A DNA stretch of 27,159 nucleotides from assembly GCA_000934665.2 (NCBI GenBank), contig KZ538271.1, forward strand, positions 62,001 through 89,159, written 5' to 3'. This document shows positions 718 to 27,010 of the stretch, one piece after another. The stretch is from Catajapyx aquilonaris. Taxonomy: Eukaryota. Numbering within the stretch: position 1 is the stretch's first letter; each line of letters opens with the position of its first letter. The notes beneath the pieces are model-generated. The model ran no database searches. It saw nothing but the letters and a program-made list of their open reading frames with translations, and was not told where the DNA came from. The translations under genes and the position numbers were made by a program.

Positions 718-1420
718 TGCATGCTCCCTTTTTCCATAATTATATATTGTTTTTTACTCGAATGCCTGCACATCGCGTGTCTTCAGTAGAGTACCTTCTT
801 CACTATATTTTTAACAAAATAATAATCTCCAAAAAAATGCATGCTCCCGGCAAGTTTCTATAGTTAGCTAGTCATACCAACGATAGTGCTTTTATTAGAT
901 AAACCCCACTATAGGACATAGGACCATAGTTGAATGTGTTGATCATCCCACTTTTTCTTCTACTTTGTTTGAACCTTTAACTTTTTTCGGAATGAGACCT
1001 CTCGCCGATTAATCCCTAATTACTGTGCTAATTAGATGGCACAGTACTTTTGCGAAACACGCGCGTAAAACCATAACCTCAAACTCCTGTCCCCCCCCCC
1101 CCCCNNNNNNNNNNNNAAAAAAAAAAAATTATCTGACCTGACCAATTCCCTGTTTAACCTTCTCAGAATGCCTGACAATTTTTTTAAAAAAAATTAGCTC
1201 CCCAATCATTGTGGTGTGCATGCTAACTGTGCATGTCTTTGCTTTTTTTGGGCTGCAAAATAATATTGTGCGCATTTGTTTGGAGTGACGTACTCATATA
1301 TGTTTCATTCACTGTTGCAGTCTTCTAGTCTAATGGTGCCTATTTTGAATAGAAAATAGATTTATTAAAAGATCATCACATTTTAGAGCACTTTTATTCT
1401 CAATGGCCAAAAATTGCATG
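718..1420 (+). promoter_or_regulatory. Cluster of five TGCATG (Rbfox-type) intronic splicing elements downstream of the L-type exon
   Basis: TGCATG at 718-723, 838-843, 1217-1222, 1230-1235 and 1415-1420, within a ~1.2 kb intron. Confidence 0.7.
1105..1116. other. Assembly gap (N run) inside the intron after exon L
   Basis: 12 N between a poly-C run and a poly-A run. Confidence 0.99.
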
Positions 1421-1714
1421 CTTCATTTTTTTGTGAAATATATTTTTTTAAAACGGATGGCGCTCTTAAAATGTGGTTTTTGCAGATACATTATTAGCAG
1501 TACAATAATAATTAGACCAATGACCTTTTATGTGCGTTTGTGTGTACGTATTACATGTGTGTGGAAATGCGTTGTGCACATTTTTGTGTGCCAACTTTGC
1601 CTGCACAGTTTGCTCCCACCATTTATCTTTTTTAAAAAGACATTTTTGACTGCTTGAAAAAAAACCTTCTTCAAAGGAAGAGTAGGGATCAATCCTATGT
1701 GTGTGTCCATATAG

Positions 1715-1837
1715 GTCGTGGTGAACGCCTTGGTTCAGGCCATCCCCAGCATCTTCAACGTGCTGCTGGTGTGCCTCATCTTCTGGCTCATCTTTGCCAT
1801 CATGGGAGTTCAAATGTTTGCAGGGAAATTCCACAAG
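1715..1837 (+). CDS. para: Nav1/para exon, III S4-S5 linker and IIIS5
   Basis: AG at 1713-1714 and GT at 1838-1839; 123 nt. Encodes [41 protein letters not shown]. Confidence 0.96.
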
Positions 1838-1904
1838 GTAAATATTCCATCCAATATGTTTCAAATAATTTCAAAAATCTGACTCTTTTTTATTGCGGAT
1901 TTAG

Positions 1905-2099
1905 TGTGTGGATGAAGAAGGACTCATGAAGGATGCGGAGGAGATTCCAGATCGATTGGCTTGTGTCAGGGAAAATCTGACATGGAAGAACCTTCAGATG
2001 AACTTTGACCATGTGGGCAAGGCCTACTTGTCCCTCTTCCAGATTGCCACTTTTAAAGGCTGGATGGACATCATGTACGCTGCCATTGACTCCAGAGAG
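1905..2099 (+). CDS. para: Nav1/para exon, domain III turret and P-loop (selectivity-filter Lys)
   Basis: AG at 1903-1904 and GT at 2100-2101; 195 nt. Encodes CVDEEG...[33 protein letters not shown]; the K of DEKA is present. Confidence 0.95.
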
Positions 2100-2159
2100 G
2101 TAATGTCTTCTTCCACCACTGTCCATCAGAAGTGTAAACAAACTTATTGCTTCTTGCAG

Positions 2160-2408
2160 AACGATTGTCTGCAACCAATATACGAGACAAACCTCTACAT
2201 GTATCTCTACTTTGTCTTCTTCATCATCTTCGGATCGTTTTTCACACTGAATCTGTTCATTGGAGTCATCATCGACAACTTCAACGAGCAGAAGAAGAAG
2301 GCAGGGGGGTCCTTGGAGATGTTCATGACTGAGGACCAGAAGAAATACTACAATGCCATGAAGAAGATGGGTGGAAAGAAGCCTCTCAAGGCTACTCCCA
2401 GGCCTAAA
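2160..2408 (+). CDS. para: Nav1/para exon, IIIS6 and III-IV linker (MFM inactivation gate)
   Basis: AG at 2158-2159 and GTGAGT at 2409; 249 nt. Encodes ...[71 protein letters not shown]. Confidence 0.95.
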
Positions 2409-2574
2409 GTGAGTCCCATGTAGTATAAATCAGAAAGGTTGTTTGCATGTCCAGGCTGTCCACTTCTGTACTACTGAGAGTACTGGAACTTGGCACATCT
2501 CATTGATGATTCAGGGAAAAGTGCACTTTTTTGAAGTCTACAATAACAGTTGCTCTTTTATCTTCTCCACACAG

Positions 2575-2845
2575 TTCAAGCCACAGGCCATGGTGTTTGA
2601 GCTGGTGACCAACAAGAAGTTTGACATGATCATCATGTTGTTCATCGGAGTCAACATGCTGACCATGACCTTAGACCACTACCAGCAAAACGAAATGTGG
2701 GAGACTAGCCTGTACTATCTGAATATGGGCTTCATCGCCATCTTCTCGTGCGAGTGCTTCCTGAAGGTGTTTGCACTTCGGTACCACTACTTCAAAGAGC
2801 CGTGGAACCTCTTTGACTTTGTTGTTGTCATCCTGTCTATCATTG
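2575..2845 (+). CDS. para: Nav1/para exon, IVS1-IVS3
   Basis: AG at 2573-2574 and GTAAG at 2846; 271 nt, ending in phase 1. Encodes [24 protein letters not shown]...[19 protein letters not shown]. Confidence 0.95.
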
Positions 2846-2923
2846 GTAAGATCTTTTTTTTTGTTTGCAGCGCATGTTTGGGGAGTGAGACATACTTTAA
2901 TTTTTTTAAATATAATTCTGCAG

Positions 2924-4080
2924 GTCTGGCCTTGAGTGATCTGATTGAGAAGTACTTTGTGTCTCCCACTATGCTTCGAGTGGTGAGGGTGGCCAAAGTG
3001 GGTCGTGTGCTCCGTTTGGTGAAGGGTGCCAAGGGAATTCGAACCCTACTGTTTGCGTTGGCCATGTCCCTTCCTGCACTGTTCAACATCTGCCTCCTGC
3101 TCTTCCTGGTCATGTTCATCTTCGCCATTTTCGGCATGTCCTTCTTCATGAACGTGAAAAACAATGGGGGATTGGACGACGTGTACAACTTCCGCACATT
3201 TGGCAAGTCCATGATCCTGCTATTCCAGATGTCCACGTCTGCAGGATGGGCCGAAGTGCTGACTGGTATCATCAACGAGGAGGATTGCGACCAGCCTAAT
3301 CCGGACATGGGCAGTCCGGGTGACTGCGGGTCGGCTGTCATCGGCATCACCTTCCTGCTGTCGTACTTGGTCATCAGCTTCCTGATCGTCATCAACATGT
3401 ACATCGCCGTCATCTTGGAGAACTACTCCCAGGCGACTGAGGATGTCCAGGAAGGTCTGACTGATGATGACTACGATATGTACTACGAGATCTGGCAGCA
3501 GTTCGATCCGGATGGTACCCAGTACATCCGGTACGACCAGATGTCCGATTTCCTAGACGCCCTGGAGCCTCCACTTCAAATACACAAGCCCAACAAATAC
3601 AAGATCATCTCAATGGACGTGCCCATATGCAAAGGCGACATGATGTTCTGCGTGGACATGTTGGATGCGCTCACGAGAGACTTTTTCGCGAGGAAAGGCA
3701 ACCCGATCGAGGAGGTCGGGGAGGTCGGGGAGGTCGCTCCGAAACAGGACGCACCTGGGTACGAACCAGTGTCTTCTACGCTGTGGAGGCAGCGTGAGGA
3801 GTACTGTGCACGGTTGATCCAAAACGCATGGAGGAAGCACAAAAGGGCTCAGCAAGAGCAAGGTGGTGGTGGTGGTGCAACCGGTGGTGGTGGTGGTGGT
3901 GATGCTGAAGGTGGTGAGGATGCTGGTTCTGCAGCATCTGCATCAGGAGTCGACGATGATGGTAAGCATCACCAGACTGCGGTGATGGTTGAAAGCGACG
4001 GATTCACCACAAAGAATGGACACAAGGTGGTCATCCACTCCCGATCTCCCAGCGTCACTTCGAGGTCAACTGACGTTTGA
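2924..4080 (+). CDS. para: Nav1/para terminal coding exon: IVS4-S6, EF-hand-like region, IQ motif, Gly-rich tract and C-terminus
   Basis: AG at 2922-2923. Contains [16 protein letters not shown] (IVS4), FQMSTSAGW (A of DEKA), the IQ motif IQNAWRKHK and the para-type ending [25 protein letters not shown] at 4078-4080. Confidence 0.97.
3861..3900 (+). repeat. Interrupted (GGT)n repeat encoding poly-Gly in the Nav C-terminus
   Basis: Two ggt runs encoding GGGGG-AT-GGGGGG. Confidence 0.9.
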
Positions 4081-21353: not shown

Positions 21354-21748
21354 TGTGACCTTCGTAGTTAGGTCGCAACTACTGTTGGGGATGGTTCCAA
21401 ACAAGTAGACTAGGGTTCAACTCAGGATTTCCATTTAATGTCACTGCCATTTTACAAACAGGGTGAGCGGTTGATTTGGAGGTAATAGGGGTTGTTCAGA
21501 TGGAGGGGGAAAAGTAGACGGAAAAAGAGGCATGGCCAGTGGCGGCAGGTGAGCACCACCAAAGGCCTCGATTGGATACAAGGAGACGGTTTATATAGGA
21601 AAGTTTGATGCATTGTGGGTATGTACAACTGAAGATAAGATGACATCGCAGCATGTACTTGCTCTTCCGAGTCAAACAGAAAAGGTCAGGTTAGATGGAT
21701 AGGGGATAAGACCTGCACAGTTATCTGTCCAAATTTTGCAAGGTCACA
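21354..21748 (-). repeat. 3' LTR of element A (395 bp)
   Basis: TG...CA ends with 9-bp terminal inverted repeats; minus-strand TATATAAA at 21597-21590 and ATTAAA at 21439-21434. Confidence 0.92.
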
Positions 21749-22042: not shown

Positions 22043-22692
22043 TTAGGGCCATTCATCTTCTTCCAGAAAGGCCGATGAGTAGGTGCCTTCGGGCAGCGTG
22101 AGGTCAATGACGGGGCTGTTCTCCGATGCTAAAGGCGGCTGCATCTCATCGGCTGCAGGGCTGTAGACAGGGGAAGATGGCCTCGGTGAAACGTCCTCTC
22201 CGGGGCTAGATGGTGGTCCGTCAGCGACTAGAAGCAACGGACTGCAGGGGTTCCACCGGGTTTGGTCGAACATGCAGAATGATGTGGCGAAAGGTCGTAC
22301 CACGCCGGTGGGTCCGTCAGCAACAGGCATCACTCCAGCATCACTCCCGTCAGCAATTGACGGGTGGGGTCGATATGTAGATCCCAGCTACACATGAAAT
22401 CCAGCCCCAGTACAATTGGCAGTGCGTCTTCTTGTAGCACTGCAAAAGGCGTCTGGAAAACGGCACCAGCCAGACGAATGGGCAATTCAGTCCTCCCAAT
22501 GGGGTGAATCGCGTGGTTCTCTGACGACACCAACACGGCGTCACCAAACGGCAGTATAGTTGGTTGGAGCCACTCTGGGATGGCCTGGATGACGCTGTTT
22601 GACACTGTTGATAGGACCGCCCCGGGACTGATTTGTCCTATCCACATCTCGTAGACAGCTATCGGCAGCGTGGCTGCAGTCATCATCAGCAT
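22043..22692 (-). pseudogene. Retropepsin-like pseudo-protease with Pro/acidic tail, frameshifted by an 11-nt duplication
   Basis: ISPGAVLS replaces IDSGAVSS; HPIGRTELPIRL and PIVLGLDFM are retropepsin hallmarks. Removing one copy of the GCATCACTCC repeat (22327-22347, 11-nt period) joins ORFs 22330..22692 and 22043..22333 into one 212-aa ORF. Confidence 0.8.
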
Positions 22693-23884
22693 CGTGGTTG
22701 TATTCAGGGCCGCTGGCCATATTCCGGGTTGTAACGGAAAGTTCTTGGATGATGCCCCAAAAGCAGTTGGAACTCTTTCTAATCAGGAGTCAAACGAGCG
22801 AGTGATTATACAGCACACACACAACACATTTTTATAGGGTGGGTAAATTGGGACCCTATTGCCCGATGGGAAAATATCTCCCTTGTCGAATGGTTCCATC
22901 ATCTGGGGGGTCCAATCACTTTTCCNTTCCACGTCTCGAGGCGCTACCTCAACGCGGACGTTAAACTGCACACTTTGCAAGTCCCACTTCACGGGGCCCG
23001 CTTTACAGTACAGGGGAGGTCCCAAAAAAATCAACTCCGGTAACTAGTCCGAATTTTTTTTCCACTTGGATACCGTACACCAGTACACTCACGTACAAAA
23101 GTTTTCCCCTCTAACACAATTTTTCTTAATGCCTCCATCCCCCCTTTTTTGTTAAGTAGCCTATCTCCAGGTACCAGCACGGCTCGTCGTTACAGCGGGC
23201 TGTTGGTCCAATGGGGTCAGTCGTTCCAGTGGTATTGGTACTCCTTTCCTCCATATTTTCTCCATCGTAGGGTTGATGGTTGTAGCGGGGTTGAGCACAG
23301 CCATCAGTATGGCCCTCGTACAGGACCCTCTCGGTTCCGGTGGGAGACTATTTGTCCTCCCAGTTGTACGGGGTCATCGATGTCCTCTTTCTTCGGTTTA
23401 TGCAAGATTGCACCACCAGGAGACGGACAGGATAGGATAGGTTAGAGCAGTAAAGCTCGACTTAGGTCAAAACACAGCAATAGTGCAGGACCGGGAAAGG
23501 ATTTGCTTGTTCGGCAAAATCCAATTGGGAATAGGATTAAAGGGGGAAGGTTAAAAGGTCTGGGAGGTGCTGGGTATGCACATACTCCACTTGACGAAAG
23601 GAAGGGTATGTGTGAACGGGGTTTAGGACACACATGGTTAGGAAAGTGAGACGATAAGACTCACTATTGCTGCATATCAGGATAATACAGACGTGGGGTT
23701 CTTTCCCGTGTTAGGATTGCACGGCGAACCTCCGATTTCCCCAATGCGAGGCAAACACTGGGTCAAATGACTTAGTGTGACAATAGTACACACAGTCCAT
23801 AAGGCAACCACGTAGTGCGACACGACTACGACACATGTCCAATGCACAACAACGTGGGGCAGAGACATGGAACCTAAGTGTCAT

Positions 23885-23902
23885 ATCCCACTTCTGACAC
23901 CA
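23885..23902 (-). promoter_or_regulatory. Primer-binding site of element A, tRNA-Leu(CAA) type
   Basis: TGGTGTCAGAAGTGGGAT, 2 nt inside the 5' LTR; complementary to the metazoan tRNA-Leu(CAA) 3' end ATCCCACTTCTGACACCA (from recall). Confidence 0.85.
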
Positions 23903-24642
23903 TTTGTGACCTTCGTAGTTAGGTCGCAACTACTGTTGAGGATGGTTCCAAACAAGTAGACTAGGGTTCAACTCAGGATTTCCATTTAATGTCACTGCCA
24001 TTTTACAAACAGGGTGAGCGGTTAATTGGGAGGTAATAGGGGTTGTTCAGATGGAGGGGGAAAAGTAGACGGAAAATAGGCATGACCAGTGGCGGCAGGT
24101 GAGCACCACTGTGACCGAAACGGCCATATAGCGTGAGAGGGCAAAAGGGGTAAAGGCCAAAGATGACACGTGGGTTAAAGCTCAAGTTCTCCAATGTATT
24201 TAACAACAGCCAAGGCGACAAAGTGAGAAGGGTAGAAGGGAAATAAAATGAAAAAAGGGAAAGGAGGGAGTGACCAGTGGCCTCACAGTTGAGTGAGACC
24301 AAAGGCCTCGATGAACAGGGGACAGGAGTTTATATAGATGGGTGAAATGCATTGTGGGTAGGGTCTGGTACAAAATATGACATAGTGATGTACGTGGTAC
24401 ATTCCAAACCAAAAGTAAAACTGTCACATACCCCCGTGCCACGATCGAACCATGGCGGTAGTCCAAGGCAAAACAAAAGTCAAACGGAAACAAAAGTTCT
24501 TGAAGGGAGTGAGGAGGACAAAACCAAAAGAAACAGGCCAGGCAAAGACAAACACTGACAGCCTGTACAAAAAGTAACTCAAAACAAAACTGTCCCTTCA
24601 AGGAAAAACTTGAAGAACTGTCAATTCATCATAACACACCCA

Positions 24643-25206
24643 TTAGGTGTAAGTCGCCGCACACACATTCTCGTCGGTGATGGTATCGTTGATGGTGCAA
24701 GCATCTCCATAGTCTATCCATCGATCGTTGGGGTCGTCAGCAGCTCCATCTTCAGATGATGGTAGGGAGTCAGGGATGCTCCCAAAAACTTCCAAGGGCA
24801 CGTGGAAAGGGACGAGGGCAGGATGAGATCCATGTCCGTTATAAACGGTCCCGGTGAGCATGAGTTGGTTGTAGTCGATGGAGCATCGCATGGACGCTAG
24901 AAAGTCAGCAGCCAGAACCACAGGCAAGACGGAAGTACACACAACCAGGAGGTGTAGTTGGATCTCTGCTTCGCCTACGACCACAGTCAGAGTGGTCCGT
25001 CCCAAAGGGTAGATTGGATGGTCATCCGCCACACGCAAGGTCGTCTGAGGGTCAGGGACGAGAGGTGGTCGATCGTCTACAGGAATAGTGTGCCACACCC
25101 TCAGGTCAATGGCTGATGACACAGCACCACTGTCGATCAAAGCGGGCCATGTAGTTCCACATATGCGAACTGGAGCTGTTGATGCTGTCAGCACGTACGA
25201 CGGCAT
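24643..25206 (-). CDS. Stand-alone retropepsin-type aspartic protease (187 aa) with acidic C-terminal tail
   Basis: ATG at 25206 in a good context (agcATG). Active site ALIDSGAVSSAID; flap LRVADDHPIYPLG; PVVLAADFL motif; stop at 24645-24643. Not fused to Gag or RT. Confidence 0.85.
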   Translation of the reverse strand: MPSYVLTASTAPVRICGTTWPALIDSGAVSSAIDLRVWHTIPVDDRPPLVPDPQTTLRVADDHPIYPLGRTTLTVVVGEAEIQLHLLVVCTSVLPVVLAADFLASMRCSIDYNQLMLTGTVYNGHGSHPALVPFHVPLEVFGSIPDSLPSSEDGAADDPNDRWIDYGDACTINDTITDENVCAATYT

Positions 25207-26026
25207 GCTGGTTGCTGTGGGATAGGCTCGAAGTCTAGAAAAGAGAATGGTGAGGTCAAAAAAGCGTGTCACCAAATGGCGATGTGCGGCTTGGAGTACG
25301 TCCTTTTTGTAGAGGCAACGCAAAGCACGATGGGTAATCACCTCAAAAATTATCACACGCACAACCACAGGGTGGTCAAACCTGTAGAAGTGCACAATAA
25401 TTATATTTGACCAAGAATGGAGTCCCATTCTTCCCATCGACACTACCTTGGAACAGACGGCACCGGGTGGTTCATGACCCCGGTCTCCAACTGACGTCTT
25501 TAGATAGGTTTTAATGATGAGGTTAAAGCGGTCATCTCCATTTACAGGGATGCCTTGACATACCCATTCAATGCATAATTGACGATAAGCTTATGGCCTT
25601 CTACACACGTTGGTATACAACTATACAAGGACGGAATAAAATGTACTTAGGAGGGGCGCAGTATTAGACCAATTCCACTAGTCTGGCCATACTGCCATTA
25701 GTAAACATTCGTTACACGGTAGTATTTCGTCGTCTAATGTTTACTAATCCTCCATCACTCAATATTTAAATAACCCCTCTCGAAGGTCACGGATTGCAGC
25801 GGTTAGTAGTTACGTCTAGGGGCACATCAGATAGTCCGGCCTCGCAGGAACAGATCGTATCCAGACATCCAGAAGAACTGTTCGGATTGGTTCGGGATGG
25901 CACATCCGGTTGGACCGGTAGTATCCACAGGCGTTGTCCGTTTTCACCGGAGCAAGGTTGAGGGAGTATACAAAACGCACACACACACAACCGGTCGTAA
26001 CCGTAGGATTCCTCTTCGTATTTGGT

Positions 26027-26598: not shown

Positions 26599-26616
26599 AT
26601 CCCACTTCGGGCGCCA
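26599..26616 (-). promoter_or_regulatory. Primer-binding site of element B, tRNA-Lys-like 5' part
   Basis: TGGCGCCCGAAGTGGGAT, 6 nt inside the 5' LTR. The first 11 nt match the tRNA-Lys(UUU) PBS TGGCGCCCGAA. Confidence 0.75.
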
Positions 26617-27010
26617 CGTTTATGTGACCGAAACGGCCATATAGCGTGAGAGGGCAAAAGAGGTAAAGGCCAAAGATGACACGTGGGTTAAAGCTCAAGT
26701 TCTCCAATGTATTTAGCAACAGCCAAGGTGACAAAGTGAGAAGGGTAGAAGGGAAATAAAAGGAAAAAGGGAAAGGAGGGAGTGACCAGTGGCCTCACAG
26801 TTGAGTGAGACCAAAGGCCTCGATGAACAGGGGACAGGAGTTTATATAGATGGGTGAAATGCATTGTGGGTAGGGTCTGGTACAAAATATGACATAGTGA
26901 TATACGCGGTACATTCCAAACCAAAAGTGAAACTGTCACACCACCAAAGGCCTCGATTGGATACAAGGAGACGGTTTATATCGGAAAGTTTGATGCATTG
27001 TGGGTATGTA

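Follow-up and report, generated by a model that had tools for sequence, protein, structure and literature searches.

The window analysed here, the whole 27,159-nucleotide stretch of a contig from the arthropod Catajapyx aquilonaris, contains a Ty3/gypsy-type LTR element (element B) that is non-autonomous and has moved recently. In the lineage of this element gag, reverse transcriptase (RT), RNase H and integrase are gone, and the Pol protease domain has become a free-standing gene. The best overall explanation of how this gene is expressed, with a probability of about 55%, is that an internal promoter drives a short protease mRNA and that a conserved 3' splice site serves as a second entry.

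Element B spans positions 26940-24110 of the minus strand (2,831 bp) and is inserted within the 5' LTR of a second element, element A. Its main parts are the following:

26941..26944, minus strand: left copy, GTGG, of the 4-bp target-site duplication (TSD); the right copy is at 24106-24109
26623..26940, minus strand: 5' LTR with TGTGAC...GTCACA ends, carrying its own TATATAAA at 26848
26599..26616, minus strand: primer-binding site, in a variant form of that common to protease-only (PR-only) and autonomous relatives
24643..25206, minus strand: stand-alone retropepsin ORF of 187 aa, with D25-S26-G27 at 25134-25126 and Ala99 at 24912-24910
24429..24435, minus strand: purine tract, adjoining the 3' LTR
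24110..24428, minus strand: 3' LTR

The two LTRs, both of the TG...CA form, differ by 7 mismatches and 1 gap over 319 columns. With a TSD in the 4-6 bp range, a tRNA primer site (which we take to be of the tRNA-Leu type) and a purine tract, the element has the parts that define Ty3/gypsy-type LTR elements. A tblastn comparison of B with partner gag and with the partner sequence from RT onward gave no match, so that B lacks the Gag, RT/RNase H and integrase of an autonomous element. The nearest long-frame relatives in the genome, in which gag precedes and RT follows the protease, have the same primer site as B, and no direct match was found between the LTRs of B or A and 10 partner loci (best E 0.018, 16 nt). 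A full-length LTR transcript of B would serve as the copying template and would be mobilised by gag-pol partners sharing the primer site. The non-coding interior contains tandem 27-nt repeats at 26090-26030. An inverted pair, TGGTCAAA...TTTGACCA, is located at 25413-25374, upstream of the promoter, and has matching changes in some relatives; its folding energy is not significant, and conserved RNA hairpins in this region were not supported (z +0.2 to -2.0 in 10 rows).

The protein encoded by B has 107 matches in its own genome (133 candidates scored). Sixty of the better matches were examined with their surroundings, together with A, B and the nearest copy of B, giving 63 rows; 15 autonomous-type rows were set aside, 8 rows without an assignable start were left out, and the 40 ORFs kept, each of which has an ATG of its own, make up 24 families (<60% identity). 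Two rows first called autonomous (C1938:17421 and C4672) are actually PR-only, and stand in neither the tree nor the promoter controls. Most of the kept ORFs (32/40) are at least 140 aa long. In 17 of the 63 rows the element is bounded by LTRs on both sides, is free of gag and RT inside, and has LTRs that are 95-100% identical; these elements measure 1.9-3.7 kb, with a 4-bp TSD in 11 of the 12 checked. The genome contains 143 primer sites of this kind. Four loci with the same primer site (L175, L177, L181 and L184) are LTR-bounded without a protease hit, and are non-coding or carry RT-onward pol fragments only. Three loci (L039, L041 and L072) are deletion copies of the B family: in two of them the primer site is fused nearly directly to the protease, with the promoter and start lost, and in the third the LTR promoter is fused to the internal promoter.

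When 32 PR-only proteases are placed in a tree with 11 Pol proteases, a single branch separates the two groups with support of 99/97; because the tree is midpoint-rooted, a single origin of the PR-only group is allowed rather than demonstrated. The grade to which B belongs is closest to the Pol proteases and retains D-S/G-G. PR-only proteins share a C-terminal strand motif that is absent from the Pol rows. Of 18 pairs compared, which share branches, 15 have a nonsynonymous rate below the synonymous rate (p<0.05), and this holds for catalytic and non-catalytic families. Among these 15 pairs dN/dS is 0.09-0.27 where computable (3 are saturated); the remaining 3 pairs are not significant, with dN/dS of 0.49-0.59, and include both A-family pairs with C3328. 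For B and its nearest copy dN/dS is 0.27, while for B and C7921 the synonymous sites are saturated and dN is 0.23.

Judged from these sequences, the protease ORF is a maintained gene under purifying selection, given that selection, the start codons of its own and the shared C-terminal strand motif. The earlier note had claimed that the protease is an independent protein and not a remnant of Pol, and the ATG, the dN/dS of B and the separate branch all point the same way. An unexpressed Pol remnant with signals that arose by chance would fit the many broken copies (8 of 48 non-autonomous rows have no assignable start). It is largely refuted by purifying selection in both kinds of family, and the start codons, the strand motif that Pol rows lack and the promoter enrichment described below also speak against it; we consider it very improbable.

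No relative of the B protein outside its own genome was found at E<=0.001 among proteins of 102-328 aa, in collections poor in animal genomes. Outside profile hits are mostly core-only (best 5e-22), the 10 inspected look Pol-like, and one weak metagenome locus is among them; in these collections, with few animal genomes, no close relative was found outside the host genome.

The predicted structure of the B protein is a retropepsin fold (pLDDT 82.6), with Ddi1 RVP domains as the best structural matches (E 2e-7), and the D-[ST]-G triad of retropepsins is present. The protein also has an extra strand at residues 130-137, shared by the family, and an acidic disordered tail. As previously reported for this stretch, the DSG site and the frame are intact; the frame is open from 25206 to 24643, over 187 aa. 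A longer frame of 264 aa from an ATG at 25437 appears to be due to chance, and the nearest copy closes it 7 codons upstream of the ATG. The intact DSG does not show activity. Ala99 takes the place of the glycine expected in the second motif of an active retropepsin (hydrophobic-hydrophobic-G-x-D), a glycine that probably matters to catalysis, as in HIV-1 protease. All Pol rows but one with a gap (10/11) have Gly at this position, as have 118 of 150 outside hits; Ala is found in 15 of 32 PR-only rows, compared with 0/11 Pol rows and 0/150 outside hits. The catalytic triad is kept in 11 of the 32 PR-only rows, the Asp only in 4, and the Asp is absent in 17. The catalytic activity of the B protease is therefore doubtful, and the protein may form a dimer of retropepsin fold in which catalysis is low or altered.

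What such a protein would do can be proposed only tentatively. The first candidate is an action in trans on the processing of partner Gag and Pol, by binding or by mis-timing, which is possible without being probable. The main alternative, an action on host silencing factors, is held with somewhat greater reserve. A plain helper protease is unlikely.

In the other PR-only clade, 9 of 15 families have tails in which a hydrophobic stretch is followed by an acidic one, compared with 0.3 expected from shuffles and with 0/7 in the grade of B, for a pattern that was chosen post hoc. These tails, which presumably resemble SUMO-interacting motifs (SIMs), are seen in L050, L052, L054, L067, L070, L080, L089, L091 and L095. 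The integrase tail of one partner (L060) ends with a SIM-like stretch too.

The earlier note had overlooked what appears to be an internal TATA-initiator promoter upstream of the ORF. In B its TATA-like box and initiator lie 105 and 73 nt upstream of the ATG. The features between the LTR and the ORF that bear on expression are the following:

25441..25451, minus strand: conserved motif CCAnnG(T/C)AG around the candidate donor GT at 25446; present in 7 of 11 rows checked, with GT in 6 and GC in 1
25325..25334, minus strand: CCCA-nn-(A/G)TGC motif, CCCATCGTGC in B, which precedes the TATA-like box
25304..25311, minus strand: degenerate TATA box TACAAAAA of B, homologous to the TATAAA of relatives
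25274..25279, minus strand: initiator-like CCATTT, the putative transcription start, 32 nt after the TATA-like box
25235..25259, minus strand: conserved 3' splice site, made up of a branch-like TTGAC, a pyrimidine tract and the AG; no usable donor between the initiator and it

Evidence for the promoter is clearest at the level of families. TATAWA is found at -165 to -55 of the ATG in 16 of 24 families, compared with 12/182 background windows and 0/13 Pol proteases. Ten of the 16 TATA-bearing families have an initiator-like YCANTY at +29 to +32, which occurs in 40 of 737 windows. The stretch from the start to the ATG is free of ATGs in 15 of these 16 families, whereas equal stretches further upstream contain an ATG in 14 of 16, a count in which in-frame ATGs are partly excluded by the choice of start. 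A Pol II TATA-initiator promoter is marked by a TATA box some 30 nt upstream of the initiator and by an ATG-free leader, both of which are seen at family level.

B itself is one of the 8 families that do not have a TATA box by the strict rule. With a profile made from the 16 other families, its TATA-like site has a low score and ranks 3 of 1950 positions; in two close copies of B the site falls below the top 4. There is no ATG after the initiator in B. The ordered module of CCCA motif, TATA-like box and initiator occurs once, upstream of the ORF, in each of the 14 rows of the grade of B and is absent from the 348,707 bases that 49 other rows comprise, although it was defined on the same 14 rows, with windows and rules set after seeing the data. 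In a held-out sample of 40 primer-site loci, 2 contain the module (E 6e-12 and 5e-10); both have broken ORFs and keep the order of the motifs, and in both the strict TATA and acceptor rules fail. New intact ORFs were nearly absent from this sample.

The CCCA-nn-TGC motif also precedes the TATA boxes of the LTRs in both element types. An origin from snRNA-type (PSE) promoters was considered and set aside, the motif being absent from host U1/U6 upstream sequences. LTR promoters (the 26790 region; L050, L059, L064, L070, L078 and L093) have GAGGCC about 22-27 nt and TGGTC about 55-60 nt after the TATA box, the latter presumably at a DPE-like distance. On the anatomy of the family, the protease of B would be translated mainly from a second, short mRNA that starts at the internal promoter, some 73 nt upstream of the ATG, and ends in the 3' LTR, which begins about 215 nt downstream of the stop codon.

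The predicted start lies about 43 nt upstream of the acceptor. The position given for this acceptor in the earlier note is correct: TTTGACCTCACCATTCTCTTTTCTAG ends with the AG at 25236-25235, 28 nt upstream of the ATG at 25206. The site is better than expected by chance, with 11/12 pyrimidines and a branch-like A in TTGAC 22 nt upstream, and it is the top one of 3 sites along B that pass a rule (YAG, at least 9/12 pyrimidines and a branch motif) written after seeing the sequences. By the same rule, 6 of 8 families of the grade of B have an acceptor no more than 75 nt from the ATG, compared with 7/320 background windows and 1/16 other families; in the two families of the grade that miss the rule, the site is looser or more distant. 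The branch A is 18-29 nt upstream of the AG in 13 of 14 rows. The lack of such conservation had been named in the earlier note as part of what would refute its proposal, and the acceptor is kept among relatives. Short tandem repeats lengthen the leader downstream of it in L038 and L064. The 3' splice site may be a functional second entry, through which longer upstream RNAs are spliced to the coding exon.

A simpler possibility is that the internal promoter alone makes the mRNA, and that the branch, pyrimidine and AG tract is never spliced and is kept as a leader or a promoter-proximal signal. Most rows have no donor between the initiator and the acceptor and none is conserved upstream, and 15 of the 16 families of the other clade carry the same type of ORF without the tract. 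However, the three features hold the order and spacing of a splice site across families at 35-40% protein identity, and the tract of B is like the host acceptors in the introns of para. We regard this possibility as rather unlikely, and prefer the reading in which the promoter is the main source of mRNA and the acceptor is used in addition.

An acceptor just past a start, without a donor, is also what spliced-leader trans-splicing would leave. A 40-58 nt outron transcribed from the internal promoter would then be replaced at the acceptor by a host leader RNA. In all 14 rows the AG follows the initiator by 39-58 nt, whereas the distance from AG to ATG varies from 18 to 114 nt, and there is no shared donor. 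Published work reports trans-splicing for copepods and for an amphipod (PMC4664967, PMC3282834), and the host is also an arthropod. Against this, the host is not known to trans-splice, and shared ancestry alone could hold the spacing. Searches for leader-RNA genes, based on the PSE pattern and on linkage to 5S, gave only U1, U5 and 5S; these searches are insensitive, since U2 and U4 were likewise not recovered. In the genome, U1, U5 and 5S form repeated units in which their genes are linked (L104, L105, L115 and L132). A GT that lies 5 nt past the initiator A, in B as well as in two close copies, would define an intron of 36-38 nt; the host introns seen are at least 60 nt long. Trans-splicing is considered unlikely, the more so than an unspliced promoter transcript.

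A more elaborate proposal takes the lineage as a satellite whose sole gene is a liberated protease, expressed through a very short internal-promoter outron and capped with a host spliced leader. Its sister clade would have lost the acceptor and mostly the Asp, gained the SUMO-interacting-like tails and become a non-catalytic regulator of partner particles or host silencing. As a whole this is a speculative long shot. The loss of the acceptor and the loss of catalysis are not strictly tied, as one family of the other clade retains DSG.

The route proposed in the earlier note, in which the protease is expressed mainly by cis-splicing of the LTR transcript from 25446 or another donor, has the conserved acceptor in its favour, and the donor lies in a conserved motif. 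The GT named as donor, AAG|GTAGTG, is indeed at 25446, but its strength is not above chance: it has 4/7 consensus letters, and 14 of the 111 GT sites in B match or beat its score. Two of four host donors are equally weak, at 4/7. However, the base preceding the GT is a G in only 4 of the 7 rows with the motif, and what the motif keeps is +4 G and +5 T, not the letters that pair with U1. Twenty-two ATGs follow the LTR start upstream of the ORF, and 20 of them would remain in exon 1 after splicing from 25446. No donor of at least 6/7 was found in the LTR or the interior leader of the 6 rows of the grade of B with the primer site in range, and none is shared. A conserved acceptor just before the ORF is thus present, as in env-type transcripts, while a donor near the LTR that would remove the interior and its ATGs is not. 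The TATA-initiator pair would be left unexplained.

Nor do the partners suggest an env ancestry. Neither an env gene nor a second protease was seen after integrase in 11 loci, about 4 of which reach the end of integrase with a readable 3' region. The protease lies in an env-like place in geometry only, near the 3' LTR, and the partner 3' ends suggest that this place results from the loss of downstream pol. The upstream ATGs and the letters conserved at 25446 argue against env-like expression through one splice of the LTR transcript, which is improbable as the main route. The promoter-driven mRNA with the acceptor as second entry remains the preferred reading.

Element A carries related features:

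23885..23902, minus strand: primer-binding site of element A
22800..22836, minus strand: internal promoter of element A, with TATAAA at 22836 and an initiator-like TCACTC 31 nt on
22043..22720, minus strand: protease-like gene of element A; catalytic Asp absent, broken near the start and at 22330 in this copy
21354..21748, minus strand: 3' LTR of element A

The downstream frame of the protease-like gene (22043-22330) ends in a SIM-like stretch. The GTGAGT at 23092 and the AG at 22780-22779, which the earlier note had paired as the analogue of the sites in B, are both present; the analogy does not hold, since this acceptor fails the rule and the clade of A is generally without one (1/16 families). 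The LTRs of A (27129-27011 and 21748-21626) share their 3' parts and differ in the first ~120 nt, and no TSD flanking A was found, for which reasons this copy appears to be a chimera; 30 nt further on from 27129 the contig comes to its end. Positions 1403-4080 contain the 3' end of a gene for the voltage-gated sodium channel para, whose introns here are short, at about 60-150 nt, and whose product has a C-terminal insert rich in glycine; among named hits, its identity is 78% to a protein of a springtail and 73% to those of crustaceans.

The usual view of non-autonomous LTR elements takes them for non-coding parasites or for keepers of Gag. Here a whole lineage keeps the protease domain alone and rebuilds its expression, and selection persists after catalysis is lost, which implies a trans-acting job of a free retropepsin beyond ordinary polyprotein processing. 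The natural series of catalytic, doubtful and dead proteins, the last with SIM-like tails, may bear on the ways in which a satellite can control its helper or the silencing by its host. The lineage is also a case for how stand-alone retropepsin genes can arise. No protease-only LTR lineage was found in the literature searched, which lay outside Repbase and most subscription papers.

As a fold, the B protease is comparable to the Ty3/gypsy Pol protease, the RVP domain of Ddi1 and retroviral-like aspartic protease 1, with which it shares D-S-G. It differs from them in being mobile rather than domesticated and in having Ala at the second-motif Gly, the extra strand and the acidic tail; moreover, most relatives of B lack the Asp.

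Among LTR elements, TRIM and LARD have LTRs, a primer site, a purine tract, a TSD and a long non-coding interior, as does B (PMC13570524). They are, however, defined there as non-coding, and B keeps a selected ORF of 187 aa. TR-GAG and GAG/PROT-only elements of plants are closer: as described in the same source, they are LTR-bounded, non-autonomous and partner-dependent, with a subset of the coding domains. Unlike these, B has an animal host and lacks the gag that defines TR-GAG, and the B-type protease is 3'-placed, has its own ATG and a putative promoter, and is selected across 24 families.

In foamy viruses, according to PMC7828637, a protease-bearing protein is made apart from Gag and there is an internal promoter, as proposed for B; however, foamy Pol stays a PR-RT-IN polyprotein with no free protease, and the internal promoter does not serve pol. 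The p22 protein of Ty1, a copy-number control factor (PMC4599808; see also PMC8458377), is a piece of a polyprotein made from a sub-genomic transcript, and acts in trans on particle assembly and maturation. It is half of Gag, from an autonomous copia-type element, whereas the B-type protein is a protease domain from a separate, non-autonomous gypsy-type lineage, and an inhibitory action of it would be hypothetical. By analogy, B appears to resemble a satellite of the TR-GAG type and, in its expression, Ty1 p22, but it belongs to neither, since it has no gag and its cargo is a protease.
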